A stretch of 36,183 nucleotides of DNA from a virus (taxonomy: Duplodnaviria; Heunggongvirae; Uroviricota; Caudoviricetes). The stretch lies in IMG/VR virus record IMGVR_UViG_2737471857_000022; one strand, written 5' to 3'. This document shows, one piece after another, positions 1-35,193 of the stretch. The first letter of the stretch is position 1; every line of letters begins with the position of its first letter. Position numbers and translations under genes: made by a program. Below the pieces are notes generated by a model. It saw nothing but the letters and a program-made list of their open reading frames with translations, had not been told where the DNA came from and made no database searches.

Positions 1-351
1 ATGCGAGGGACAGTCGAAATTATGCGTTATCCCGTCACTCTTACACCCGCGCCGGAAGGCGGTTATATGGTTTCTTTTGTGGATATCCCTGAAGCGTTGA
101 CGCAGGGCGAAACTGTCGCTGAAGCGATGGAAGCGGCAAAAGATGCTTTACTGACCGCATTTGATTTTTATTTTGAAGATAACGAGCTTATCCCTTTACC
201 TTCGCCATTAAATAGTCATGATCACTTTATTGAAGTGCCTTTGAGCGTCGCCTCTAAGGTATTGCTGTTAAATGCTTTTTTACAGTCAGAAATCACTCAG
301 CAAGAGTTAGCCAGGCGAATTGGCAAACCTAAATGTTGTAAACCCCAATAA
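1..351 (+). pseudogene. hicB: hicB-type antitoxin gene, 3'-truncated: HicB-like sequence for ~111 codons, then 5 foreign codons (CCKPQ) and stop
   Basis: ORF 1..351. Residues 8-111 (MRYPVTLTPAPEGGYMVSFVDIPEAL...ELARRIGKPK) match my recollection of enterobacterial HicB (N-terminal domain plus start of the C-terminal HTH). The frame diverges at nt 334 and stops at 349-351. Everything downstream is phage-like. Confidence 0.55.
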
Positions 352-372
352 CTAAAATTTTTGCAATAAAAA

Positions 373-395
373 AGCCCCATCACAAGGACAGGGCT
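373..395 (-). terminator. weak hairpin plus T-run downstream of the minus-strand ORF 415..720
   Basis: AGCCC/GGGCT stem (373-377 with 391-395); A-run 367-373 on + strand is a T-run on the minus strand. Confidence 0.3.
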
Positions 396-414
396 ATAGA
401 ATCAATCACTTACA

Positions 415-720
415 TCACTTAATATCTTTCATTTTACGGATACGCGCGCTTGCTTCCGGTAGTTCATCCAGTGTTACGTGATAAGCAAGCATACAGACAG
501 GAGTCGGATCGAATCCCTCATGAGTATTGATCAGATGGCTATTCCCGCCTTTAAATTCATCCTGTCCATCCCACATAGCGTACACGTCATCTTCTGCTAC
601 ATAGATAATCAATCCAATAGGGGAGTTAGTAAGCTGGAAGATGCAGCCAGTAGAATCAATACGATGTTCCCGAACGTCATCAACAGTTTCAAAGTCAATC
701 TTAATATCTTTAGTCTTCAT
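415..720 (-). CDS. hypothetical protein (101 aa), first gene inside the putative prophage left end
   Basis: Intact ORF; GAGGG Shine-Dalgarno about 6 nt upstream on the minus strand; no family recognised. Confidence 0.55.
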   Translation of the reverse strand: MKTKDIKIDFETVDDVREHRIDSTGCIFQLTNSPIGLIIYVAEDDVYAMWDGQDEFKGGNSHLINTHEGFDPTPVCMLAYHVTLDELPEASARIRKMKDIK

Positions 721-1017
721 GATTTGCCCTCGCGTGAAAATATTTTCGATTATTTATAAAAAAGACTTGACAAAATCAAAAGGTACTGTTCCACGGGTGA
801 AATAAAGGGAGTTTTCGGCACCCCGGTTTTTGATGTGCGTGTGAGATTTCAAAACAGGTGCAGTGCAGCCCACCAGCGCGGTCGCTACGCGACTATTAAC
901 ACCAGCCAATCCCTTTCCATGCCTCGATCTTTCCCTTCGTTATAAAGCGTTTTAGGCGCTCTCCTGAATGCGCAGATCAGATAAATAATTTTACGCAAAT
1001 TTAATGGAGGATAACCA

Positions 1018-1578
1018 ATGAAAGAAGAATTAACCCTTACAGAAATTTCCCGCTTATACGGCTATACAATTAACGCCGCTAAGAAATGGCAAGAACGAGG
1101 AATGCCATTTAACACCAATACACGACGCGTACCGCTCAAGGAAGGGACCGAATGGATAGCAAAAAATATCATCAGTCCACTCAGGGAAACTACTGTCAAA
1201 GAACAAATCGACGTAGAGAAGTTACGCCGCGAGAGAGCATTAGCGGACGCAGCCGAACGAGAGAACCAGGAAGCAATGAATCTCCTGATTCCCGTCGGGT
1301 ATGTGGAGCAGGAGCTAGCGGAATACTGCGGGAAAGTGAAGCAGACTATTTTGCAGATCGCCACAATCGACGCTTTAGAAATTCTCGAATCTGCCACTGA
1401 CCAGAAAACATTGAAGAATAAGCTAAGGGAGATCATCGAGCGTCGTTTAAATGAAGTAGGGGACTTGTTCGAAAATGCAGATTTGGGAGAAGACGAGGAA
1501 GAAGAATTACCATTAATGGATGAACCGGAAGAACAAGAACAAGAACCAGAAGAAGACGATGAATTTGATGTGTCTTAA
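1018..1578 (+). CDS. Nu1-family HTH DNA-binding protein with acidic C-terminal tail; possible small terminase subunit
   Basis: N-terminus LTLTEISRLYGYTINAAKKWQERGMPF plus EKLRRE resembles lambda Nu1 winged HTH (recalled). 186 aa against Nu1 181 aa. GGAGG SD at 1003-1007. Not adjacent to the large terminase gene, so the role is uncertain. Confidence 0.6.
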   Translation: MKEELTLTEISRLYGYTINAAKKWQERGMPFNTNTRRVPLKEGTEWIAKNIISPLRETTVKEQIDVEKLRRERALADAAERENQEAMNLLIPVGYVEQELAEYCGKVKQTILQIATIDALEILESATDQKTLKNKLREIIERRLNEVGDLFENADLGEDEEEELPLMDEPEEQEQEPEEDDEFDVS

Positions 1579-1625
1579 AACGCGTTATAAATAAATGTAT
1601 GAAAGATGTTGATGGTCAACGTCTA

Positions 1626-1655
1626 CGGGGGATGTTCTCCCCCGCTTAACTTTTA
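1626..1655 (+). terminator. hairpin GGGGGA-TGTTC-TCCCCC with weak T tract
   Basis: Inverted repeat at 1627-1643 directly after the stop of CDS 1018..1578. Confidence 0.35.
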
Positions 1656-1670
1656 AGAGGATATAAAACT

Positions 1671-1955
1671 ATGGCTACTTTTATTACCTATGCTGTCATC
1701 ATTACTATTCTGGCAGTTATTTCTGCTTATAAACTCGGAACCGAAAATAGAGAACGTGCTGAATTATTCTTAGGTGCGTTTGTTGCATTTTCTAGTCTCG
1801 CGTTAATTGTCGAAGGAATTTCTTATATTGTTGGCCTAGTTAGTATGACACTTTTTAACTTCCATCCGGCTATTTCTATGCATCTACTGCTTACTGTATG
1901 CTGGGTATATTGCTTAATCGAATTTTTAACGTTTGTTTTCAAACAGACTAAATAA
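1671..1955 (+). CDS. small integral membrane protein (94 aa, about 3 hydrophobic helices)
   Basis: ORF with AAGAGG SD; strongly hydrophobic segments (ITYAVIITILAVISAY, FLGAFVAFSSLALIV, LLLTVCWVYCLIEFLTFVF). Confidence 0.55.
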   Translation: MATFITYAVIITILAVISAYKLGTENRERAELFLGAFVAFSSLALIVEGISYIVGLVSMTLFNFHPAISMHLLLTVCWVYCLIEFLTFVFKQTK

Positions 1956-2112
1956 TATTGTAATCTGCCATTTCTCCTTATGTGGTTTTAACAGGGGGCT
2001 TTCGAAAGAGAGTTCCCGGTTAAAAGCCATAAAACACATTCAGTACAGTGTTTTTCATAGTCAGTGACTATACAACATAAAAACATAACAAGTATAGATT
2101 GAGTATTAATCC

Positions 2113-2138
2113 TCCCGCCCTTCGGGGCGGTTATTTTT
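2113..2138 (+). terminator. rho-independent terminator (CCGCCC-TTCG-GGGCGG plus TTATTTTT)
   Basis: Perfect GC stem with UUCG tetraloop followed by a T tract. Confidence 0.7.
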
Positions 2139-2217
2139 CTGGCTTTACTAGATAATGTAGCATTATGTTCATTATAAATCCTCATCTTTGTTGTGCAAAC
2201 CTAACCTAAACTTACTA

Positions 2218-2243
2218 GGGACTCTTCGGAGTCCCTTTTTTTA
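2218..2243 (+). terminator. rho-independent terminator (GGGACTC-TTCG-GAGTCCC plus TTTTTTT)
   Basis: Perfect 7-bp stem, UUCG loop, 8 T. Second terminator about 80 bp after the first. Confidence 0.75.
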
Positions 2244-3182
2244 TTGGCAGTAAGAAAAGTTAGTACCGTACATTTCATCATGAAGCATTGCAGCATTGCG
2301 TTTCTGTTCTTCTTCCTCATCTTCTACATCACTAGAAAAATGAGATTTGCCCTTAAAAGAACGAAGTAATTGCAGTGCAGCCATCGGATCACGCATCACA
2401 TCGATTTTCACTTCTACTTCATCATTTGCGGCCTCATCAGCCGCGTTTTCAACTACTGCTACCGGAGCAACTTCTTTAGCTTTCAGTTCTTCAATCTCAG
2501 CTTTCTGTGCTTCGATAATCTGGTCTTTTTCTTCCAGTGCAGCTTTCAGTTCTGCGATCTGTGCTTCCAGTGCAGCAAAGCGATCTTCAACAACCGGAGA
2601 AACAGCATTCACCTGTGCTTCCAGTTCCAGAAATGCTTCGCAAGATTCAATACGTTCTTTCTCTTCACCTTCATAAGCAACCAGTTCTACAACTTCTTTT
2701 TCGGTAGCGTGGCTGTTAAAGAAAACAGCAAAGTAAGGATTGCCGGATTTAGTGAAGTTCAGTTTAGCTTTTCCGGTAACTTCTTTACGACGACCGAAGG
2801 TGATCTGGCAATCAGCGGTATCCTGAAAATCCATGTTAGGAGCGGAAACGATAGCAGTATCACCAGCAATAACCAGGTGGAACAGTTCAGAAGAGTTCTT
2901 AACGGTAAAAGTAACGATGTGGTCTACTGCAACGTCTTTAGCAGGTTTAACGCGGTCGATTGCTTTACGAATGCCGTTAGGCAGTTTACCGTCAACACCA
3001 AAGCCAGCCGCGATCAGTGCTTCACGATGTGCTTTAAAGCCAGCGAAGGCGGATTTCTGCTGCGCAAAGGAAACATGAGCAACAACTTTCGGCTGAATCT
3101 TCTTGTTTGCTTCGGTGCCAAATTTGATAACTGCTTTAGCGTTGGTTACTTCGTTAGTGAAAAAGTTAGCGGAAAATAACAT
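2241..3182 (-). CDS. hypothetical protein (313 aa) with central coiled coil and acidic C-terminus
   Basis: ORF with AGGAG SD 8 nt upstream; heptad-like EAQIAELKAALEEKDQIIEAQKAEIEELKAKE; no family recognised. Confidence 0.6.
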   Translation of the reverse strand: MLFSANFFTNEVTNAKAVIKFGTEANKKIQPKVVAHVSFAQQKSAFAGFKAHREALIAAGFGVDGKLPNGIRKAIDRVKPAKDVAVDHIVTFTVKNSSELFHLVIAGDTAIVSAPNMDFQDTADCQITFGRRKEVTGKAKLNFTKSGNPYFAVFFNSHATEKEVVELVAYEGEEKERIESCEAFLELEAQVNAVSPVVEDRFAALEAQIAELKAALEEKDQIIEAQKAEIEELKAKEVAPVAVVENAADEAANDEVEVKIDVMRDPMAALQLLRSFKGKSHFSSDVEDEEEEQKRNAAMLHDEMYGTNFSYCQ

Positions 3183-3295
3183 TATAAATACTCCTGTGGA
3201 AAGTTAGTTTTAATTGTTCATTTCAAGCCTCCTTTGCTGCAACAAGGGAGGCTTTTTCTTTTTTTAAAGCCATCATATAATTCTCAGTCAAAGTA

Positions 3296-3478
3296 TCAGT
3301 AAACCTCTGCGGTTATCTTTACTTTAATGTCATACTTCTTTAAGAGTTTATGAAAGGTTGATTTATCGATACCCTCATTTTTAAACCACTCTTCAATTCT
3401 CACACCCGGCGTTAACTCAAAGTAGCGTTTAGCCATTTCTAAGATGATTTCGCGAGTGAACTTAACAGGTCGTGCCAT
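3296..3478 (-). CDS. small HTH DNA-binding protein (60 aa), Hin/resolvase-type HTH-like
   Basis: AGGAGG SD 5 nt upstream; ARPVKFT...GIDKSTFHKLLKKYDIK resembles a GRPxK-type HTH; paralogous to CDS 6886..7113. Confidence 0.55.
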   Translation of the reverse strand: MARPVKFTREIILEMAKRYFELTPGVRIEEWFKNEGIDKSTFHKLLKKYDIKVKITAEVY

Positions 3479-3994
3479 CTCGAATCCTCCTACAATGTGG
3501 ATTAATGATTTCTTAAAAAAGAGCGTTAACCGCTCACTATTATTTATATGGGGATTGTATTTTATTTTTCAACCCCTCACATTTATCTCTTATATATGTA
3601 TTTACAACAGAGATATGTTAAAATGTTATTCAGATGTTATCAGGCGTGTTAAATGTGTTAAACCACAGCACGAATTGCTAAAGCGAAGAACACGATTTAA
3701 CCAAATTGATGTATATTCAATCAATTTAGAAAAAGGCATAGCACTTTTTGCTAAAGCGGTGAGCATTAATTGAGCTATGAATTGTAAAGATTTGTTACAA
3801 GATTTTCTCTCAGATCCAAATCTTCACAGACATATAACAATTTAACAGAAGGATAACAATAGGAAGGAAAATCGGTAAATTTTCACTTTCAATACAAATA
3901 TTATGACATATTTATCTCTAATTTTCAAGTATACCACTGTTCCTGCACAGTGTCAACAAAGGACTTTCAAACCTACACTAGCCCTACACTATGA

Positions 3995-4237
3995 AAATTG
4001 CCCCCGAATTTTTGCCCCTGAACCAAAATCCCCTAGATTTCACATCCCATTTTTGCCCCTGAAACCCACTATTTTTGCCCCTGAAATTCTGGGAAACAGT
4101 GATTTTGCCCCTTATTTTTGCCCCTGAAATGCCAATAATTGCCCCTGAAAATCTAATTTTTGCCCCTGAATTTTGCCCCTGAAAAGGATTTGTGAGAAAA
4201 ACTCTTTATAAAACATTAACTTAGTGAGGGGCAAAAC
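3995..4237. repeat. iteron array: at least 6 perfect and 3 degenerate direct copies of TTTTGCCCCTGAA plus one inverted copy
   Basis: Perfect copies start at 4010, 4051, 4073, 4116, 4158 and 4171. Degenerate copies near 3997, 4103 and 4139. Inverted copy GAGGGGCAAAA at 4225-4235. Confidence 0.85.
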
Positions 4238-4239
4238 AG

Positions 4240-4860
4240 GGAATCGGGCGTGCATAGATATTATATAACACATTCGCTACGCTCATGTGTAAAACCAAAA
4301 ACAACAAATAACCAAAAAGATATTAGGAGGGCGTAGCCCGACTGCGCGAAGCGCTAACCAATTACTTCTAGTAACACTAATTTAAACTAGATGATACTAG
4401 ATGGTCTTAGAAGGAATTAACTAGTTTGCTCGCTCGCTTCGCTCACTCTCAAACGTCTGCGACGCCACTGCGTGGCATCGAGAATCACTTCTGAAAGGAT
4501 TTTCTTGAAAGGGATTTTAAACTAGTTACTAACTGATTCTAGAAAGATAGTAATAATCACTTTGAAGATAATAGTAGTTAACTGGTTACTAGATGATTCT
4601 AGATCACTTTAATGATCATGAAAGGTATTGGTTATCCCTTCGGGATTGCAACCTTCGGTTGCTAAATTGCTTCCGGATTATTATTTCTCCAAAAGAAAGA
4701 TTCTTATATTCTAAAGATACTTCTTCGTTTTGATGATGATTTAATCAAAATCTATGAAGGAGGCGAAGCCGACTGAATACCAATTCCTTTCAAATTAGAC
4801 AAAAATTTCTCGTTATAAATAATAGTGTACTTTGTTTGATTCACTTTCTTTTAGAGGATT
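4240..4860. other. about 600 bp non-coding region with clustered ACTAG(A/T)T motifs and tandem UUCG-loop hairpins
   Basis: No ORF of 60 aa or more with an RBS. CTAG-containing motifs at 4366, 4387, 4396, 4420, 4521, 4537, 4588 and 4597. Hairpins at about 4458-4480, 4633-4645 and 4648-4663. Confidence 0.4.
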
Positions 4861-4866
4861 TCCACT

Positions 4867-5319
4867 ATGATCAATACTAAAACTCCTTTCATTCTTCTGG
4901 GTCTGAACCATGATGATAATCTGGCTATGATGCATGTTTTCGCTAATCGTGGTTATAACATCATTCGTCATTCCGAAGACTCCAATTTCTCAACTGCTTT
5001 CTATGCTCTTAAACGTAATGGTCGCCCTACGGTGATCGTAGACTGCTTTACTGATGAAGGTCGTGAACAATACAACAACATTCCGGCAATTATTGTTCGT
5101 GATGACCTGCCGTTTGATGTTCGTGAATATGACGTTGATTTAGGCTCTTACTATGGGATCGCCGATCTTGACCAGATTATGGCTGATTATGGTAAACAAC
5201 CCGCTCAGGAAGCCCCAGAACACGATGAACAAGACGAAGATGACGACGACTACGCACCAATCTGCTTCTCTTCTCAGAATGGCTTCTACGGTTACGATGA
5301 AGGCTTAGATATGCTGTAA
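4867..5319 (+). CDS. hypothetical protein (150 aa) with acidic C-terminal tail
   Basis: ORF with GAGGA SD; codon usage consistent with neighbours; no family recognised. Confidence 0.6.
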   Translation: MINTKTPFILLGLNHDDNLAMMHVFANRGYNIIRHSEDSNFSTAFYALKRNGRPTVIVDCFTDEGREQYNNIPAIIVRDDLPFDVREYDVDLGSYYGIADLDQIMADYGKQPAQEAPEHDEQDEDDDDYAPICFSSQNGFYGYDEGLDML

Positions 5320-5341
5320 GTTAGGTCAACCCTTTGGCGTC

Positions 5342-5383
5342 TTGTCAAGGGGTATTGACAAAATTTTCTGACTTTTTTATGAT
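5342..5383 (+). promoter_or_regulatory. sigma70-like promoter (TTGACA-17 nt-TATGAT) overlapped by palindrome TTGTCAA-N6-TTGACAA
   Basis: -35 at 5355-5360, -10 at 5378-5383, inverted repeat at 5342-5361; a further TTGACAA at 5392-5398. Confidence 0.45.
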
Positions 5384-5439
5384 TATCGCACTTGACAATT
5401 TTGAACCTATTTGACCTAGATTTGTAAAGAGGATGTAAC

Positions 5440-5772
5440 ATGAAAGAATTTACCATCACTAAATCCCTGTATGACTGGACTGTTAAAATCTCCGGCAAAA
5501 CCGTTTCTGTAAGCCCTAGCCATGTAGAAAATGATTGGGGCGTATCCCGTGAAACTATCTCCCGTAGTATGCATGTTCCGTTTGATCTGATGTCCTTAAC
5601 TGGTATTCATGCAATGCTGGAAGTTCGCGAACAATTCGAAGCTGGTAATCACAATGCGACTCCAGTTAGCAATCACCTTCTTACTAATGAAGAACGTGAA
5701 ATCATCGAAAACTGGCGTTATGAATATGCGATTCCTTATTATGAAGAAGATCAGGTAGAAATCGATTGGTAA
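5440..5772 (+). CDS. hypothetical protein (110 aa)
   Basis: ORF with AGAGGA SD; no family recognised. Confidence 0.6.
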   Translation: MKEFTITKSLYDWTVKISGKTVSVSPSHVENDWGVSRETISRSMHVPFDLMSLTGIHAMLEVREQFEAGNHNATPVSNHLLTNEEREIIENWRYEYAIPYYEEDQVEIDW

Positions 5773-5861
5773 TAAATTTCTATTATAAATAAAATTGTTC
5801 CGGTGGTGATGCCGGAACTAGGAGGACCAAATCATTAAACCGTTTAAGGGGAATTAATACT

Positions 5862-6737
5862 ATGAATACTGTTACTACTATGAATACTGCTAACGTTTCT
5901 TTTGATGCTTCTCTGACTGCCACAAAGAAAGAATGGCAAATCGATAAAACCGCTTCAATGTCTCTGGTTGTTGATAACACCAAACCGCTGACCATGTCTA
6001 CTTTGCAGATCGCGCAAATGATGGATCGCGTAGACCGCCACCGTGATATTAAGCGAACTGTTGACCGTCTCGTTTCTTCCGGTGTAATTGTCCACACGCC
6101 AACGGCGCGCGAACAACTGGAAGATAAATTTGGTCGTTCTCGTGAAATTGAAGTTTATCTTCTTGATGAACGTTCGTCATATATTGTTGTTGCTCAAATT
6201 TCGCCAGAATTTACCGCTTTTATCGTTGATGAATGGAAGCGACTGAAAGAAGAAAATGAAAAACTTCGCTCTACTCCTGTTAACCCGTATGCAGACTTTG
6301 AAGAAACAGACTGGATCGAACTGGCATTAGATGAAAAACGCAAAAATAAAAAACTGATTGAGCTACACATTCGCAAATCCGTAGATAGCCATTCTATGAC
6401 ACGTCTGTTAGGCGCTAAAAAGGGCGCTACGAAGGTTAAAGAAGCACTAACGGCCTTGCGTACTGCTGGCTACATTGAGCGCGTCTACGATGAAAATAAC
6501 AAGCCGTGTGGGTATGTTGCTAATGACTCTTCTCTGTCTTTCTGCCGCATGAATGCTCACTACCAACTTGAGTTTACTGTTGATGTTCTTCCGGTGCTGG
6601 TTGAATTGGGCGTTTTGGAAGAAGAACAGAAAGCAACTCTTAAACTACCGCAGCCAAATAACACTATTCTGATTCAAAATAAAGCGGCTGAACGTCTCCG
6701 CCAGAATGTTGGATCACTGGAAGTCTTCGGACTGTAA
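5862..6737 (+). CDS. Rha-like phage regulatory protein / antirepressor-type protein (291 aa)
   Basis: Segment LTMSTLQIAQMMDRVDRHRDIKRTVDRL resembles the Rha-family N-terminal motif (recalled); AAGGGG SD. Confidence 0.5.
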   Translation: MNTVTTMNTANVSFDASLTATKKEWQIDKTASMSLVVDNTKPLTMSTLQIAQMMDRVDRHRDIKRTVDRLVSSGVIVHTPTAREQLEDKFGRSREIEVYLLDERSSYIVVAQISPEFTAFIVDEWKRLKEENEKLRSTPVNPYADFEETDWIELALDEKRKNKKLIELHIRKSVDSHSMTRLLGAKKGATKVKEALTALRTAGYIERVYDENNKPCGYVANDSSLSFCRMNAHYQLEFTVDVLPVLVELGVLEEEQKATLKLPQPNNTILIQNKAAERLRQNVGSLEVFGL

Positions 6738-6844
6738 TTAATTTTTAGCCTCGCCTCGTGCGGGGCTTTTTCATACCTACATCACGCGACTTTTCGCGCC
6801 ATCTTCCACCAACCCGCCGATGGCGTTTTGGACACCCTACAGAT

Positions 6845-6870
6845 ACAAAAAAGCCACTCCGAAGAGTGGC
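6845..6870 (-). terminator. rho-independent terminator for the minus-strand operon 7754 to 6886
   Basis: GCCACTC-TTCG-GAGTGGC hairpin; A6 on + strand is T6 downstream on the minus strand. Confidence 0.65.
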
Positions 6871-6885
6871 AAAGAGAATCAAAAC

Positions 6886-7113
6886 TCAAAAACCTGTTGC
6901 TTCTACGATCTGACCATCACCGATCTGAACATAGAATTTAATGTCTAACTTCTTCATATTCTTATAGAATTGGGCGATTGAGATCCCATGTTCACTAAGA
7001 ATCTGTTCTTTCGCTTCCTTACCACGATCCGCTGTATAATAAGCGTAGGCAATATCAGCCATCTGTTCAGCGTTAAAACGGGCAGGGCGACCGCGAGTAG
7101 CTTTAGTAGTCAT
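6886..7113 (-). CDS. small HTH DNA-binding protein (about 75 aa from the second ATG; ORF opens with GTG at 7146)
   Basis: RGRPARF...GISIAQFYKNMKKLDIK HTH, paralogous to CDS 3296..3478; GGAG SD suits the ATG at 7113. Confidence 0.5.
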   Translation of the reverse strand: MTTKATRGRPARFNAEQMADIAYAYYTADRGKEAKEQILSEHGISIAQFYKNMKKLDIKFYVQIGDGQIVEATGF

Positions 7114-7148
7114 AGTCATTTTCTCCAAATTAAAGTGAATGTTCACCT

Positions 7149-7754
7149 TTATTTAGAGGACTTACATTTTATCGGAAAAAGTTCTTCATCGTCAATACTC
7201 ATAAAGAACTCTGCCTTAATCCCGTACTTCTTCAACCGTGAATAGTATGTACCCCGACTTATATCAACCTTGCGAAGCACTTCAAAGAACCCTTTAGGAT
7301 CGTTGTAATAGTGGCTATAACGCACGTTAGCGAGTTCAACGAATAGTTCCCTTGTATCACCATAGCCTTTCTTGAAAGCCTCGTTACGATAGCGTGTAAT
7401 TGCGTGATTCAATCTCTTCTGTTTCAACACTTCCCTGATCGGTGTCCACTGCAACCGATAGATAGGACCGTCATCAATGCGATAATAACGCTTGATATCA
7501 AAATCAAACCAATCTCGGACTCTCCGAAACTCTGTATGTGATGTTCTATGCTTCTTAAAGAAGTTGTGAACGTCTGTATAACCATTATCGCGGTAAAACT
7601 CTATTAAAATCTCTTTCGCTTCCTCACGACTAAAGCCAGATGTTGTGTAGTCGGTTTTTAAATGCTTATGCTTAACTGGCAAACGATATTCATGATCGGT
7701 ACAACAAGACAAGGCTAATTCTACTTCATCTCTTTGTTGCTGATTAATTAGCAT
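7149..7754 (-). CDS. hypothetical protein (201 aa) with C-terminal HTH related to the two small HTH proteins
   Basis: AAGGGGG SD 5 nt upstream; C-terminal [16 protein letters not shown] matches the HTH motif of 3296..3478 and 6886..7113. Confidence 0.6.
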
Positions 7755-7841
7755 ACAACCCCCTTAAATCTTAATACCCGTATTTATCAAAATATCAACA
7801 ATTTAATAAATACCTTCATATTTCGTAATGAGGGTAATTAC

Positions 7842-9749
7842 ATGAAACTGATTTCTAATAAGGCCAAATTAAAAAAGATTCTCAGAAATGCAGCCAAATA
7901 TATTACGCCACCGCCTAAACTCCTCCCTTCTGAATGGTGCGAAGCGAATATGGTGCTGGTAGATGGTCCTCAAGCTGGGGATAAAGTTAAATTGCTGTCA
8001 TTCCAGAAAGGCATGATTGATGCTCCTTTCCTTGAGAACAAGAAAAAGTATGTTCTGATGACCAGTGCGCAGATCGGAAAGACTACCATCCTGAACGGTA
8101 TCCTGTTTAACCAGATGGCTAACGATCCATGCAATATGATTATCGGACAATCAACCGCTAAAGAAATGTCTCAATATCTCGCGGGTAAGATCCGACCGTC
8201 CATCGAAGCATGTGATGCATTAAAAGACGTGGTTACAGACAAGAATGATCGCAATGCGGTTAACAACAATAACCAGCTACAGCTAAAAACGAATCACTTC
8301 CTGTACATGGTATCGCTTACCAGTCCATCAACCCTACGTGGTAAGACCGCAAAGGTTGGATTGCTTGACGAAATCGATGCTGCTACAGCCTCAGAAGAAG
8401 GTGATCCGGTGGCGCTGGCTGCTAACCGTTTAACTACCTTTGGCGATGAAGGTCGATTAGTCGTATCCAGTACCCCGACCAGTAAGCTCGGAAGCATTAA
8501 CCAGCAATGGTTATCAAGTGATATGCGTATGTTTTTTGTTCCGTGTCCTCATTGCGGTAGACACCAGGTGATCGAGTGGGAAAACGTACAGTTTGAATGG
8601 CGTAACATCGATGGTAAGAATTTACCCGATCCTGATACCGCTCGTTATATTTGCCCCCATTGTAAGAACGCATGGACAGAAGGGGAACGAATCAGGGCAG
8701 TAGCGCAAGGCGAGTGGAGAGCAACCCGTGAAAGTGAAGTAGCAGGATTCTGGATTAGCCGTCTGTATTCACCTTTCAGCACGATCCGCGCTTGTGTGGT
8801 TGATTTTAGTCATGCGTGGCAATCCTTTGATTTACAATCATTTTATAACACCGTGTTAGGCAAGGTATACGACGATCAGGACACGGCAGTAGAAGCAAAT
8901 GAACTGGAACAACTCAAAACAGATGTTTCTATCGAGAATATCCCTGATGACGTGATTTTCTTGTGTTCAGGAATCGACCAGCAATTGGACCGCGCAGAAT
9001 CTACCATCTTAGGTGTAGCGAAAGATAAGGTTTACATTCTGGATCACCGCAGCTTTTACGATCATAACTGTGAACGATATGAATCACCTGTTTGGGATCG
9101 TCTGGTTAACTTCAAGAAAACCAAATTCTATAACGTTAATGGTGAACGTGTGCCAATGCTCGCCAGCTTCCTTGATACATCGAACGGTCGATTCACTCAA
9201 GCCGGATACCGTATTTGTGGCAAGTGGAAGAACCTACACGCGATCAAAGGTAGTTCATCCGGTAATGCTCCAGTGATTCCGGTTAAACCTACCCGCACAG
9301 GTGGTCATGAATTGCTTATGTTGGGTGTTAACGTTGGGAAATCTGCTGTTCGTGAAATGCTGGTTAGAAACCTGAAAGACAATCCTCACATCGGCTTAGA
9401 AATATCAGAAACCGTTCCTGATGATTATCTCGATCAGCTTTTGAGTGAATCCATCAAGCGTACTACTACTGGCGTGCGTTGGGTGAAAAATCCAGGTAGT
9501 ACCCGAAACGAGGCTCTCGACTGTCTGGTTTATAGCTATGCTGCTTCTCGCTACGTCCTTTCAAAAATGTCATGGGATAAACTCATTGCAATGAAAGACA
9601 GCTTAAACCGTGTTGTCGAAGAACCCGTAAAAGCTCCTGAAACGCAATCTGACGAGCAAATCGAAGAAACTAAGCCAATCACACGACCACAACGTCAAAA
9701 CATCGCCAGACGTCCAAATAGAGGCCGTAGTTGGGTAACATCGTTCTAA
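7842..9749 (+). CDS. terminase large subunit, lambda GpA-like (635 aa)
   Basis: P-loop TSAQIGKT near residue 75, two Cys-x2-Cys pairs ([16 protein letters not shown]); size and position ahead of portal. Confidence 0.85.
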
Positions 9750-9755
9750 TAACTC

Positions 9756-9773
9756 GCCGTCCTTCGGGGCGGC
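9756..9773 (+). other. stem-loop (GCCGTCC-TTCG-GGGCGGC) after the terminase gene, no clear T tract
   Basis: Inverted repeat with UUCG loop; possible RNA processing or attenuation site. Confidence 0.35.
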
Positions 9774-9821
9774 TTACTCCTAAATATTGTTAATCCAATA
9801 ACAATTAAATAAGGGGTAATT

Positions 9822-10316
9822 ATGAGTTTAGAACTAATTCCCTTAGTAATTCGTAAAGGCGAAAAAGTCACGCTGGCGAATGAAGAGGGTGTAACAATTC
9901 AGGTAGGAAATAGTAAAGGTATCATTTATCAGGTTGATGATTCTCCGGCTAATCACGAGATTAAAACCTTAGATTTTGCCGAAGGTAAATATACCATCGT
10001 AACAACTTTGGAAGATGAACTGGTATCAATGCAGGAATTAACTGTTTTGCCAGTATTCGCCAAACAATCCAAAAAAGAATATCTGCGGGAAACTATCGCC
10101 AAAATCGAGCAAGTTATTTTCGCCCGTTTATCTGGGGACGAAGCCGCATTATCTCAAATGACAGTGAAAGGGAATACTTTCGTTTATGAGTCATTAGGTG
10201 TTCTCCAGACTCTAAAAGTCGATTATGAACGTCAGTTATCAAAATTAATTCAAGCCGAACGACGTAAACAGGGAATTAGCCCGATTAAAAATATTAAAGT
10301 ACGTCTTACGCGATAA
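9822..10316 (+). CDS. hypothetical head-associated protein (164 aa) in the lambda W position
   Basis: ORF with TAAGGGGTAAT SD context between terminase and portal. Confidence 0.6.
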   Translation: MSLELIPLVIRKGEKVTLANEEGVTIQVGNSKGIIYQVDDSPANHEIKTLDFAEGKYTIVTTLEDELVSMQELTVLPVFAKQSKKEYLRETIAKIEQVIFARLSGDEAALSQMTVKGNTFVYESLGVLQTLKVDYERQLSKLIQAERRKQGISPIKNIKVRLTR

Positions 10317-31312: not shown

Positions 31313-31894
31313 TTAGAATATGCTGGCGACGTTAGCTATATTTCTGACCATTTTTTCATTATAAACAAACGTTTCTGTAGCACCTTCTTTAATATCAAAA
31401 TCACCTTTTACTAGGTTTTTCTTGATAAACAATTCTGCCGCGTATGCGTCTTTTTCGTCTTGAAATTCGAAAGTCTCGATGATATCAAATTTCATCTTAT
31501 TCTGGCATCTTAGCTTATGTTTTCTCGTCAACACATTGTGACTTACTCCAACCTTACCCACATCACCACACCGCATAACATATAATACTGGTTGCCCATT
31601 TTTATATTTGTTGTCATATTTGCTACGATTACACGGGCACACAGTAGGATTATGTAAGAATTGTTTTGCTGTTATATCTCTGATTCTTGCGCAGCTTTCA
31701 CACTCTAGCACAATACGGCTATTGATTGATTTATACTCACCTTTGAATCCGTGATAAATCAAGGGTAAACCCTCGTTTTCAATACGGGTCACGATCCTTG
31801 CTTCCATATCAATTGGATGTGATGGCGCTTTGCCATTTTTGGTGCGGATAAAATTGAACGGGATATCACATGCTTTGCGCACATCATTCATCAT
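31313..31894 (-). CDS. zinc-ribbon plus GIY-YIG-like (T5orf172-type) domain protein (about 193 aa from ATG 31894; ORF opens at GTG 31906)
   Basis: CESCARIRDITAKQFLHNPTVCPC then PVLYVMRCGDVGKVGVSHN..R..H; paralogous to CDS 32423..33421; GAGG SD. Confidence 0.55.
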   Translation of the reverse strand: MMNDVRKACDIPFNFIRTKNGKAPSHPIDMEARIVTRIENEGLPLIYHGFKGEYKSINSRIVLECESCARIRDITAKQFLHNPTVCPCNRSKYDNKYKNGQPVLYVMRCGDVGKVGVSHNVLTRKHKLRCQNKMKFDIIETFEFQDEKDAYAAELFIKKNLVKGDFDIKEGATETFVYNEKMVRNIANVASIF

Positions 31895-31934
31895 AAAAAA
31901 CCTCACTTAATTTATCTTATAGGCATTACCTTTA

Positions 31935-32387
31935 ATGTTGATGATCGAGTTCGTAGAAACCGAATTAACTAAACTGGCTTCCGAAATGGAAGAAGAAACT
32001 CCGGCAGAAGGAACCAGTATTAACGATCTTATTCTGGCAGCAGACACCGCAGATGATAAAGTGATATTCGACGAAGTTGATCCGTCTCTGGTTGAAGCAA
32101 TGAAAGAACCTGAGATCGCCATTGAAGAAACAAAAGAAGAATCTCCAGCAGTTGAACCAGTGGTCGAAGAAGTTAAGTCAGATGTTGAAGAAGCACCGGA
32201 AGTTAAAGTGGAATCTCCGGTAGCCAACATTTTCTCTAACGAAGCAGAACATCGTTCCCCAGCACATGACACTGATTCATTTTGCGATCTTACTGGCTTC
32301 CGTCCGACCATTTGCTTGATCGGTGGCGGTCGTGGTTACTACTCCTGCCCGTGGTCTTCAACCATTACAACAAATTTTTCTCAATAA
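31935..32387 (+). CDS. acidic low-complexity protein (150 aa); existence uncertain
   Basis: Glu/Pro/Val/Ala-rich ORF with host-like codon usage but no clear SD; the antisense ORF 31907..32311 is an alternative reading. Confidence 0.35.
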   Translation: MLMIEFVETELTKLASEMEEETPAEGTSINDLILAADTADDKVIFDEVDPSLVEAMKEPEIAIEETKEESPAVEPVVEEVKSDVEEAPEVKVESPVANIFSNEAEHRSPAHDTDSFCDLTGFRPTICLIGGGRGYYSCPWSSTITTNFSQ

Positions 32388-32422
32388 ATAGTAGTGAACT
32401 TATTATTTTCGAGGACACTAAT

Positions 32423-33421
32423 ATGAATACTACTTTAGCAAAGGATATCGAATTTACCGCAAAAAGCAAACGTGCGACCCCTCCGGTCGAATATGAAACC
32501 AGAATCATTAAAGTTTGTCAAGCGCATGGATGGTTATACAGTGGTTTTGTGCTTCCTGTAAAGAAACCATTCCAGAACACCAAAGTTTGCATAGAAGTTA
32601 ACGGAAAGGTTAAAACGCCATGTATTAGTCATGTTCTAACTGGTCAGTTTACTGGCAAAGATAGAGTATCACCGCCTAAGAAGAAGTTTAGATTTACCGA
32701 AGAAGAACACTTAGAAAACGCTCGCAAGTTCTACAAGCCGATAGGGTGGGATGTGTTAGGTCTGGCTGAACCTTATCAGGGTGTTGACACTAAACTAATT
32801 CTTCGTTGTAAGTGCCACGGAAAGATTCACAAGAAAGGTGATTTACACAATAACCGCAGACAAGGCGGGTTAACATGCCCTTTGGTTAGGGGTGTACTTA
32901 AATCAATTCAGAATGGTAGAAAACAGGTTATCAGAAACAAGTTTGCACAGCGCCCTATGCACTTTTATCTAATTCGTGTTGGCGAGAAGTTTTTCAAATA
33001 TGGAATTACCACTCGCAAAGATCCGATGCAACGGGTAAGAGAACACCAGAAGCACACCAGCGAGAAAATCACCTTTGAATGCTCACATTTGTTTAACATT
33101 GGATGGAAAGCTGGTGATTTAGAAATGGGGATTAAAAAGAATATTCAGGGCAAGAAAATCCCACGTAAGGTAATGAATAGCGGATTCACAGAAACGCTAC
33201 CGATTAGCAAGCTGAAAGATGTTAAATCATTCATCAATGAATACATCCACACCAACCCATCTAAGCCAATGTATTTTGATGATACCAACGCAATCAATCT
33301 GAACAACTACATTAGTGATGAAGACATAGAACGAGATTTATCGCAGTGGATGAATGCACCGTTAGCTGATTTAACACCGGAAAACTTAGAACTCGATTTA
33401 AGCCCTTTAGAGGCTCTCTAA
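32423..33421 (+). CDS. zinc-ribbon plus GIY-YIG-like (T5orf172-type) domain protein (333 aa from ATG 32423)
   Basis: GAGGA SD 7 nt upstream; LRCKCHGKIHKKGDLHNN...LTCP then MHFYLIRVGEKFFKYGITTR...R.REH; paralogue of 31313..31894. Confidence 0.6.
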   Translation: MNTTLAKDIEFTAKSKRATPPVEYETRIIKVCQAHGWLYSGFVLPVKKPFQNTKVCIEVNGKVKTPCISHVLTGQFTGKDRVSPPKKKFRFTEEEHLENARKFYKPIGWDVLGLAEPYQGVDTKLILRCKCHGKIHKKGDLHNNRRQGGLTCPLVRGVLKSIQNGRKQVIRNKFAQRPMHFYLIRVGEKFFKYGITTRKDPMQRVREHQKHTSEKITFECSHLFNIGWKAGDLEMGIKKNIQGKKIPRKVMNSGFTETLPISKLKDVKSFINEYIHTNPSKPMYFDDTNAINLNNYISDEDIERDLSQWMNAPLADLTPENLELDLSPLEAL

Positions 33422-33494: not shown

Positions 33495-35174
33495 TTAAAT
33501 TCCAAATTCCTGTAATGGACCTGATATTTCCTCTTCTGGTTTCCAGTTCTTATCTGTCAGCATGTCTAAACATGGATGCAAAACAAGCCCGTTACTTTCC
33601 AGAATCTGTCTATCATTGATAGTTTTCAAATCAACGAAGATCCGGCCTTTCCTCGGTCCTCTTGAATTTTCTATTACAACTCTCTGGGTCTTGCCATCGA
33701 TGTATTCCAGTACAAACAAGTTTTTGTACTTGTCAATCCTGCTACACCCGATCCGTTTTAGAGCTTGCTTAATCTTAAACCGGACCTTAATGCGATCCTC
33801 GTTGTAAACATCTTCTAAATCAAATTCTGCGAGCTTCTCCCAGCCTTGAGAGTCAACAGAATACATTTCCTCTTCTGCCATCTTGATCTGATTGTAGAGT
33901 GTTTCACGCTCGCTATTGAGGGTAGTAATCTGATCGGCTAGTTCCTTCGTTGCTCCTGTCATAGCAGAAAGGGCAATCAGGTTATCAATCTTGCGTGATA
34001 TCTCATCAACCTGTACTTTCAACGCCGGAACCGGATTAGCCTTATCCTCAGCAATCCAGATTTTATCAGCCAGCAATTGCAATACAGCTTTCTCTAATTG
34101 ATCACCTCGAAAACTCCAGTTTGTATGCACACATGCAATACGACTAGAGCGCATTGCATCGCATGAATAACGATATTGGTTAGGACGTTTGTTAGTTCCT
34201 TTCACCTTAACCATAGCGGAACCGCAATGTTCACATTTCAATAGACCAACACCACTAAGCAAGGGAATAGGTTTAACTTCTTCCTTGTCTCCATAGTTAC
34301 ATGCTCTAACACCAATGCTTTTCTTAAGGTGATAAAACTCAGCGTCATCTAGCACACGAGGATAATAATCCTTTAACTCATACTTAACGCCATCTACAGA
34401 GATTTCCTTGATACCAATCAAAGCGCGGGTATGGAACAACCTTTCAATCATTGCCCGTGACCAGTTTGAATGCCTCTTGTGACTTGCGGCTGGTGGTGGT
34501 GTGTATGTCGCGTTAAGGTGATCCAGTATCTCGGCGGTTGACCGTCCATTCCTGCGTAATTCCACAACTTCCTGAACAATAGGGAAGAAGACCGGATGAG
34601 GAAGCACATAACCAGATGTGGTATCAGTCCACCACATATTCTTTCCAATTTCCTCGATTGCAACAGCCGGATTTTGTGGATTTTCTTGATGAGCTTTAAT
34701 CTTAATCAATGCGCTTGAGTTAGTACGATTGCGCTTAGTCTGACTTTCCTCGTTAGCTCTCGCAAACAACATGACACTCAACAGCAAATCAATAGGATTG
34801 GCATTAACCGATTCCTTGCTATAGACCTTACCATCCATGCCAGTTACGATAGTTATTCCCCTACGGATAATCGAGAGAAATAGCTCTTGTGCTTCAATGA
34901 TGGATTGGCGAGAGATACGGTCTAAGTTTTCCACAACCAGCCAGCTACCAACCGGAACGGATCGACCAATCTCATCCAGAAAGCGAGATAGTGCACCTGT
35001 TCTACTGTTAGCCCCTTTGAATGCAGATACACCAAAATCCTGATAGCTTGTAACTAGCTCAAGATCATATTTTGCGGCTATCTCTGCGGCTGTTCTCTTC
35101 TGGCGTTCATAAGAACTACCATCCGCTTGCTTCATAGACGAGAAGCGAATATACGAATACAGTTTAGTTTTCAT
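33495..35174 (-). CDS. large serine recombinase (phage integrase), about 559 aa from ATG 35174
   Basis: N-terminal resolvase motifs YIRFSSMKQ, SYERQ, LVVENLDRISRQ; zinc ribbon CEHCGSAMV...YSCDAMRSSRIAC; C-terminal coiled coil. Confidence 0.85.
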   Translation of the reverse strand: MKTKLYSYIRFSSMKQADGSSYERQKRTAAEIAAKYDLELVTSYQDFGVSAFKGANSRTGALSRFLDEIGRSVPVGSWLVVENLDRISRQSIIEAQELFLSIIRRGITIVTGMDGKVYSKESVNANPIDLLLSVMLFARANEESQTKRNRTNSSALIKIKAHQENPQNPAVAIEEIGKNMWWTDTTSGYVLPHPVFFPIVQEVVELRRNGRSTAEILDHLNATYTPPPAASHKRHSNWSRAMIERLFHTRALIGIKEISVDGVKYELKDYYPRVLDDAEFYHLKKSIGVRACNYGDKEEVKPIPLLSGVGLLKCEHCGSAMVKVKGTNKRPNQYRYSCDAMRSSRIACVHTNWSFRGDQLEKAVLQLLADKIWIAEDKANPVPALKVQVDEISRKIDNLIALSAMTGATKELADQITTLNSERETLYNQIKMAEEEMYSVDSQGWEKLAEFDLEDVYNEDRIKVRFKIKQALKRIGCSRIDKYKNLFVLEYIDGKTQRVVIENSRGPRKGRIFVDLKTINDRQILESNGLVLHPCLDMLTDKNWKPEEEISGPLQEFGI

Positions 35175-35193
35175 ACCATTTCCAAACAAAAAC

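Follow-up and report, generated by a model that had tools for sequence, protein, structure and literature searches.

A probable Nu1-type small terminase subunit encoded 6.3 kb from its GpA-type partner in an enterobacterial prophage family

INTRODUCTION

How is DNA packaged by a phage whose large terminase gene is preceded not by a small terminase gene but by divergently transcribed helix-turn-helix (HTH) genes? The question is raised by IMG/VR virus record IMGVR_UViG_2737471857_000022, a stretch of 36,183 nucleotides (nt) that was analyzed whole and is called the window here. The window is a nearly complete ~35.8-kb Escherichia coli prophage of low GC content (about 41%) inserted in hicB. The usual synteny of terminase genes is terS-terL (PMC3706429, PMC4524720), and gene order is widely used to annotate small terminase subunits (TerS) that are too diverged to be named by sequence. 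That rule fails in the common E. coli and Salmonella prophage family to which the window belongs. Rather than lying directly upstream of the co-oriented gene for the GpA-type large subunit (TerL; positions 7842-9749, forward strand), the terS candidate (1018-1578, forward strand) stops 6,263 nt before the terL start at 7842, and the interval contains genes on both strands, five of them opposite in orientation to the two terminase genes.

A first-pass annotation made from the sequence alone had proposed either that the Nu1-like product of the terS candidate, a protein of 186 amino acids, is the small subunit and acts over a distance or that it is a repurposed regulator, the actual subunit then being found among the HTH proteins. 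The former alternative gained support from homology to gpNu1 of phage lambda, from adjacency to terL in 61 of 63 related loci, and from divergence in step with TerL, and the latter did not hold up. We conclude, from sequence comparison, that the 186-amino-acid protein is very probably a genuine Nu1-type small terminase subunit, one that would be diffusible and act in trans.

RESULTS AND DISCUSSION

The 186-amino-acid protein is a diverged member of the Nu1 family

TerL of the window is a 635-amino-acid protein that combines an N-terminal GpA ATPase domain (GpA_ATPase, PF05876; 190.6 bits, E value of 4.7e-56) and a C-terminal GpA endonuclease domain (GpA_nuclease, PF20454; 152 bits, 2.6e-44), both far over their cut-offs, and it matches phrog_15 with an E value of 1.2e-136. 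Its gene is the first of the head/tail operon and is followed by a gpW-like gene, the portal gene, and a protease-capsid fusion gene.

The 186-amino-acid protein matched PHROG 57, "terminase small subunit," from end to end (E value of 1.7e-16). HMMER searches of 1.84 billion cluster representatives found 45 relatives at an E value of at most 0.001, and thus the TerS family is small and diverged. When a profile of 27 family members was compared with the PDB, it matched the DNA-binding domain of lambda gpNu1 (6hn7_B, 2.3e-8; 1j9i, 9.8e-8; 7lw0, 3.3e-7), and the alignment to the gpNu1 winged HTH included the motif W-x-E/x-x-G-M/L-P. The same profile also matched the Nu1-like N terminus of the satellite protein RppC (E value of 5.3e-7), and 8 of the 27 members individually matched Pfam Phage_Nu1 (E value of <0.01; best, 3.4e-7).

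Structure prediction against Nu1, which the first-pass annotation had suggested as a check, pointed the same way. The AlphaFold2 (AF2) model, with a mean predicted local distance difference test score (pLDDT) of 73, contained an N-terminal winged HTH, three long helices (residues 40-88, 93-125, and 129-153), and a disordered acidic tail (157-186) that ends in DDEFDVS. The top two Foldseek matches of the model in the PDB, at weak E values (0.36), were 1j9i and 6hn7_B, both of which are the gpNu1 DNA-binding domain (probabilities of 0.96 and 0.92; template modeling scores to target of 0.61 and 0.57). We conclude that the 186-amino-acid protein is a diverged branch of Nu1 and that its membership rests on profile, fold, and gene context.

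The first-pass annotation had also allowed that closer annotation might bring out a canonical small-subunit gene adjoining terL. None was found in a six-frame profile scan of the whole window (open reading frames of at least 30 amino acids), in which the 186-amino-acid protein was the sole match to the family profile. The result was the same when the window protein and its closest relative were left out of the profile (E value of 5.5e-52).

Adjacency is ancestral and the split is confined to one clade

The whole TerS alignment had no conserved stretch usable for a locus search, and single-protein searches and a TerL alignment were used instead. With the TerL alignment, 80 loci were fetched from species-representative genomes, and these were then scanned with the TerS profile. 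The profile found a match in 63 of the 80 loci, and the match abutted TerL in 61 of the 63, in hosts ranging from Yersinia, Leclercia, and Phytobacter to Alphaproteobacteria, Bacteroidota, and Acidobacteria. In IMG/VR viral loci L040 to L046 (locus numbers carry the prefix L), a TerS homologue 36 to 39% identical to that of the window either overlapped TerL (about 41% identical) or stopped 14 nt before it. We conclude that adjacency is the ancestral and usual state and that TerL proteins of this GpA lineage are regularly partnered by the TerS family.

The two genes were separated in all 30 E. coli and Salmonella loci examined, with gaps of 5.8 to 8.4 kb and TerS proteins 52 to 97% identical to that of the window. 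As the same gene order was found in all 30, the split is not an assembly artifact. Separation was also found in IMG/VR loci L034 to L039 (gaps of 5.0 to 6.1 kb; TerS about 40% and TerL about 50% identical to the window) and in Atlantibacter and Buttiauxella (4.8 and 5.2 kb). In a neighbor-joining tree of TerL, the split loci formed one clade, with TerL about 49% or more identical, and all adjacent-type loci fell outside it. Escherichia phage DCP80, whose TerS homologue comes after the lysis genes, fell inside. Thus, the split was present in every examined member of the enterobacterial clade and only there. Because the split loci are monophyletic, we conclude that a single ancestral rearrangement separated the genes and has been retained since and that the split reflects neither decay nor assembly error.

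TerS and TerL diverge in step, such that TerS identities to the window of ~40% accompany TerL identities of ~50%, and TerS identities of 36 to 39% accompany a TerL identity of ~41%. Moreover, the C terminus of every split-clade TerS is an acidic tail that closes with a hydrophobic-acidic motif (DDEFDVS, EEFDLS, EIEIDLN, EIDLD, or SEIEL). The TerS tail was basic in the adjacent-type viral loci L040 to L045, and that of L046 had neither motif.

Mosaic exchange marks the probable contact surfaces of TerS and TerL

Separation of terS and terL has allowed their free reassortment, which amounts to a natural domain-swap series. In E. coli, the same TerS (95 to 97% identical) is paired with two alleles of the TerL core that are only ~59% identical to each other. 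The core (codons ~16 to 600) has been swapped between otherwise near-identical prophages (window 7842-9749 versus L003:6629-8533; L030 versus L031), and at the DNA level, identity of 97 to 100% falls to about 55% near position 7885 and recovers near 9640. Both alleles share the first ~15 and the last ~35 residues, and these termini are lineage specific in E. coli and Salmonella. The Salmonella pair L030 and L031 carries the same two cores behind an N terminus of its own, MKHISNKNKLKRIFK, and loci L027 to L029 have a third TerL N terminus, which is paired with a third type of TerS C-terminal half. In these loci, the TerL N terminus tracks the TerS type and not the type of the TerL core.

TerS itself is mosaic in L026 (3735-4566, compared with window 740-1578), where the DNA-binding half and ~170 nt upstream resemble L027 and L029 and the C-terminal half is of the window type. 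The DNA-recognition half of TerS thus travels with its upstream region. In lambda, the C terminus of gpNu1 contacts the N terminus of gpA, and the mosaic pattern is consistent with a similar contact between the TerS tail and an N-terminal helix of TerL. As one TerS occurs with two TerL cores that keep the same termini, and as the DNA-binding half of TerS is exchanged together with its upstream region, these exchanges likely mark the Nu1/GpA contact surfaces.

A proposed mechanism and its alternatives

We propose that TerS is made from its own short transcription unit beside the attachment site and that the diffusible protein, likely to have retained small-terminase function, would assemble with the GpA-type TerL, whose gene opens the late operon 6.3 kb farther downstream. 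Recognition of the packaging site would fall to the N-terminal winged HTH of TerS and formation of the oligomer to its long helices. As the gpNu1 C terminus does with the gpA N terminus, the acidic tail, the end of which is conserved and hydrophobic-acidic, most likely binds the basic N-terminal helix of TerL. In the proposed history, terS was originally followed directly by terL, and in the ancestor of one enterobacterial prophage clade, a whole early, replication, and regulation module would have come between them, an order inherited since.

Several results weigh against this interpretation. The match of the 186-amino-acid protein to Pfam Phage_Nu1 (PF07471) was weak, at 15.2 bits and under the gathering cut-off of 30. 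NCBIfam gave no match to the protein, and a single-sequence search of the PDB returned only chance matches, none of them to Nu1. The weak Foldseek E values concern a winged-helix fold that is also found in MerR regulators and excisionases. Moreover, no cos, R sites, or integration host factor (IHF) site was identified in the window, which leaves no DNA-level sign of where TerS binds, and no isolated phage of the split clade was found in the phage collection except DCP80, the record of which is probably chimeric. Finally, the conserved TerL termini could be recombination breakpoints arising from flanking homology or linkage and not from selection.

The HTH proteins in the interval were candidates for the real small subunit in the first-pass annotation, which would leave the 186-amino-acid protein with some other task. 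They are encoded at 3296-3478 (60 amino acids), 6886-7113 or 6886-7146 (75 or 86 amino acids), and 7149-7754 (201 amino acids), all on the reverse strand. The proteins are small and of a DNA-binding type, two of them are encoded directly upstream of TerL, and they have an N-terminal RP-x-KF/RF motif that may resemble the start of some small-terminase HTH domains. As the annotation had stated, however, the genes before terL are divergent: the two nearest ones are transcribed away from it and leave an 87-nt intergenic region (7755-7841), which is conserved in 24 of 24 close loci and 4 of 4 distant loci. The three proteins are paralogues that share one HTH-like domain of ~55 amino acids, present in four copies since the 201-amino-acid protein has two, which is the pattern of a regulator family. 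At the end of the domain are a KK(Y/L)(D/G)IK motif and then a short strand; the paralogues also have DNA repeat family D4 in common. Pfam, PHROGs, and NCBIfam gave them no match to a terminase or any other curated family, other than a sub-cut-off match of the 60-amino-acid protein to HTH_Tnp_1 (E value of 0.0015). Furthermore, tblastn (E value of at most 1e-5) detected no homologue in the distant split loci L033 to L039 or the adjacent-type loci L040 to L046, all of which keep a TerS homologue and all but L033 of which have a TerL match, and HTH allele types do not track the TerL allele type. We infer that the HTH proteins are regulators, and we regard a small-terminase role for any of them as very improbable. 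Thus, the first-pass interpretation stands as to a distant-acting Nu1-like subunit and falls as to a repurposed regulator replaced by an HTH protein.

Somewhat less improbable, if still unlikely, is that the 186-amino-acid protein has small-terminase ancestry but now serves another purpose in this clade, for example as an excision directionality factor for the serine integrase or a transcription regulator, packaging being left to TerL alone or to an unrecognized partner. The terS gene has left the late operon and adjoins attL, and in the circular form, it diverges from a leftward unit whose last gene is that of the integrase; moreover, the winged-helix fold is common to the 186-amino-acid protein and the excisionases RdfS, Pukovnik Xis, and Tn916 Xis. 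Excisionases of this MerR-like winged-helix type, however, are simple single-domain proteins of about 55 to 80 amino acids encoded beside the integrase. The 186-amino-acid protein retains a three-part Nu1-like architecture, the long helices and C-terminal tail of which would be superfluous for such a protein, and excisionases were only weaker fold matches. The integrase gene is at the other end of the prophage and three genes from terS in the circular form. Repurposing is also hard to square with the C-terminal motif conserved throughout the split clade, with divergence in step with TerL, with the lack of a substitute TerS in the window, and with the Nu1-like partner found in 63 of 80 related GpA loci and abutting TerL in 61 of these. 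A related thought is that the position of terS beside attP, divergent from the integrase unit and with its own conserved leader of ~250 nt, reflects a second role or separate control. TerS might, for instance, serve as a checkpoint that times packaging separately from the making of heads and tails, or it might be both small terminase and excision directionality factor and so tie packaging to excision by the serine integrase; we give this little credence.

Were the prophage defective or rearranged, the split would be a product of decay and not a working order. The lack of an isolated plaque-forming clade member from the phage collection, and mcr-1/ISApl1 insertions in some copies of the prophage, could be read in that way. 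The same order and intact reading frames nevertheless occur in dozens of independent loci of E. coli, Salmonella, Atlantibacter, and Buttiauxella at several integration sites, the set of head, tail, lysis, and integrase genes is complete, and functional modules are actively exchanged, all of which makes decay highly unlikely. We therefore favor the 186-amino-acid protein as the small terminase subunit of the window.

The leader upstream of terS and the search for cos

A noncoding region (751-1017) precedes terS on the same strand and is conserved in 21 of 24 close loci; at least 3 of the others begin at terS, every relative that covers the region conserves it, and the neighboring gene at 415-720 varies. 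The region contains TTGACA at 768, a hairpin at 808-824 that is flanked by A and T runs and shows some compensatory changes among relatives, and a GC-rich palindrome, GTCGC-TAC-GCGAC, at 883-895, the sequence of which varies with the TerS type. The hairpin suggests control by termination or antitermination or else a protein-binding site. As region 751-1017 occupies the canonical lambda position, a guess would make it the candidate cos region; a promoter with a leader is just as plausible.

A lambda-R-like motif, TCCCTTTCC, was not enriched (6 found versus 7.07 expected), and the regions upstream of terS and terL had no common motif of at least 9 nt. The Logan contigs L050 and L053, of about phage length, turned out to have host flanks and to be prophages; a contig of a free phage with its ends was not found. 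Because the DCP80 record looks chimeric, its ends are not trustworthy for placing cos.

Comparison with known systems and consequences for annotation

The closest likeness is to gpNu1/gpA of lambda. TerL of the window has both GpA domains, the TerS profile aligns to the gpNu1 winged HTH, and the predicted order of DNA-binding domain, helical assembly region, and C-terminal tail is the same in TerS (186 amino acids) as in gpNu1 (181 amino acids). Downstream of terL come a gpW-like gene and the gene for a lambda-type portal. In lambda, however, the late operon opens beside cos with the overlapping genes Nu1 and A, whereas the window genes lie 6.3 kb apart in separate transcription units with an early region between them. 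Also unlike gpNu1, TerS of the window has a strongly acidic tail with a terminal EFDVS-type motif and a sequence too diverged for the Pfam threshold.

A review notes that proximity of terS and terL is not universal and that terS of phage E217 lies about 58 kb from terL (PMC9611059). The Pseudomonas phage E217 is like the window in that the two genes are not neighbors, but it is a lytic myovirus with an unrelated TerS. In the window, a defined early module of 6 kb separates two genes that share one side of the prophage map, and the split is derived and monophyletic. Satellites provide another parallel: in phage-inducible chromosomal islands (PICIs; RppC, PDB 6hlk and 6hn7) and Staphylococcus aureus pathogenicity islands (SaPIs; TerS), a Nu1-like or TerS protein that is encoded away from terL, even on another replicon, directs TerL. 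The window differs in that it is a complete phage and itself supplies the genes for TerL, capsid, and tail, and its TerS has full length and not the RppC architecture, with no sign of hijacking. Action in trans is established for small terminases, in this family and in others. We conclude that the pair is a diverged Nu1/GpA terminase in which the gene order is new, the mechanism is ordinary, and unlinked terminase genes have precedents. Adjacency of terS and terL is a positional habit and not a functional requirement.

Most database copies of the 186-amino-acid protein are labeled "hypothetical protein." Correct naming of TerS matters for predicting the packaging sites of these prophages, some of which have mcr-1 insertions, and transduction by them.

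We note that P0100, a distant member of the TerS family from Xanthomonadaceae (L047:1061-9230; L048), is found in a small island with no TerL within about 5 kb on either side. The island also encodes a tyrosine integrase, an AlpA-like HTH protein, an AAA_25 protein, and a tape-measure-like gene product, and it looks like a phage satellite.

Genes and sites between terS and terL

The elements that the first-pass annotation had listed (Nu1-like, GpA-like, membrane, HTH, and Rha-like genes and two repeat regions) were all confirmed. Downstream of terS and co-oriented with it lies a gene for a hydrophobic, presumptive membrane protein of 94 amino acids (1671-1955, forward strand), which is variable, with DNA-level presence in only about 9 of 24 close relatives. 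It is followed by a conserved noncoding block of 290 nt (1951-2240), in which a terminator scan found two terminator-like hairpins (2113-2130 and 2217-2236). The block was matched in about 22 to 24 of 24 close loci, while the genes on either side vary, and possible identities for it are a small RNA and a cis site; an Rfam scan of window positions 1 to 10000 gave no match at an E value of at most 1. A rightward operon of early type, on the forward strand, encodes proteins of 150 (4867-5319), 110 (5440-5772), and 291 (5862-6737) amino acids. The last of these is Rha/Ant-like: it matched the phrog_63 antirepressor (E value of 6e-15) and was named "Rha family transcriptional regulator" by PGAP, and its relatives carry Phage_pRha (PF09669).

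A noncoding stretch of 1.4 kb contains an iteron array (3997-4242) and a second repeat pair (4520-4603). The iteron, TTTTTGCCCCTGAAA, is present in seven direct copies and one inverted copy, with spacings of 41, 22, 43, 21, 21, and 13 nt, and the seven occurrences of TGCCCCTGAA in the window all lie inside the array. The first-pass annotation had implied a link between the repeats and packaging, which was not borne out. Among the window and L003 to L032, TGCCCCTGAA was found 5 to 9 times in all 14 loci that have the gene for a 313-amino-acid protein (2241-3182, reverse strand), including a Salmonella copy only 67% identical, and 0 to 3 times in the 17 loci without that gene, which have other genes and other repeats and a TerS still about 95% identical. 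Because the iterons covary with the 313-amino-acid gene and not with TerS, they belong to the 313-amino-acid protein, and a role as cosB or small-terminase sites is ruled out.

The array has the features of an iteron origin, namely at least four direct repeats, helical-phase spacing, and a position beside the gene for its likely binding protein. The 313-amino-acid protein has a beta-rich N-terminal part, an alanine-rich coiled coil, and an acidic C terminus; it had no Pfam, NCBIfam, or PHROG match and no homology to a known Rep family. Its AF2 model (pLDDT of 42.7) was unusable, and its homologues among the matches listed were all 99 to 100% identical. The array and protein are probably a replication origin and its initiator. 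With no family match and no usable model, "origin" is a functional guess, as is the initiator role, and the array could alternatively be a partition site or an operator array.

The array and the 313-amino-acid gene also appear to be exchanged as one cassette, both being present in the 14 loci mentioned above. At the same site, the 17 other loci carry other genes (such as pairs encoding 333 and 337 or 364 and 371 amino acids) and other repeats (AAACCTACACT and others). The cassettes look like alternative replication or maintenance modules.

The prophage and its insertion site

The window opens with the 5′ part of hicB, a chromosomal antitoxin gene (bases 1 to about 350), and the remainder is prophage. 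The hicB reading frame is interrupted at the attL junction (335-360), which has a shared core, AACCCCAATAAC, with a related core at another insertion site, and at the corresponding point, the PGAP annotation of hicB reads "missing C-terminus." Strain UTME-9 has the 3′ remnant of hicB ~36 bp past the position that corresponds to the last base of the window, and thus the window contains essentially the whole ~35.8-kb element.

The late genes are ordered as GpA-type large terminase, gpW-like protein, lambda-type portal, protease-capsid fusion, tail genes, a fiber of 1,136 amino acids, and lysis genes. A large serine integrase is encoded near the right end (33495-35189, reverse strand), and the gene set for head, tail, lysis, and integration is complete. 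An HNH endonuclease beside the terminase, as in HK97, was considered and rejected: two products matched PHROG 681, "endonuclease" (31313-31906, reverse strand; 32282-33421, forward strand), without Pfam support, one having only a CapR homology domain and the other no Pfam match. The PHROG 681 name is probably misleading for both.

When the initial 12 kb of the window was compared with the phage collection by Megablast, no match was found, and a literature search found no paper on this prophage family. In a protein search of the collection, only DCP80 (PQ671644.1; L001 and L002) had relatives of both terminase subunits. This 141-kb record is classed as a T4-like Gaprivervirus, yet its initial ~26 kb, from TerL to TerS, belongs to the unrelated siphovirus-like lineage of the window and adjoins T4-type genes, motA among them. 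The opening 1.3 kb of the record are similar to the origin-like noncoding region of the window. The record is therefore probably a chimera in which a T4-like genome was assembled together with ~26 kb from the window lineage.

The junction core AACCCC(C)AATAAC is common to insertions in different host genes, hicB in the window and a site near ycdX in other strains. Insertion in hicB costs the antitoxin its C terminus and leaves hicA, upstream, intact. In two E. coli genomes (strains PE15 and HeN100), mcr-1.1 flanked by ISApl1 was found inside the part of the prophage that matches window positions 1 to 10000. The slot between the attachment site (or the lysis genes) and terS holds cargo that differs among relatives (L017:523-1317; L035:6445-7341), being an LprI-like lysozyme inhibitor, a TIR-domain protein of the CAP12/Pycsar type, or, in the window, a protein of 101 amino acids (415-720).

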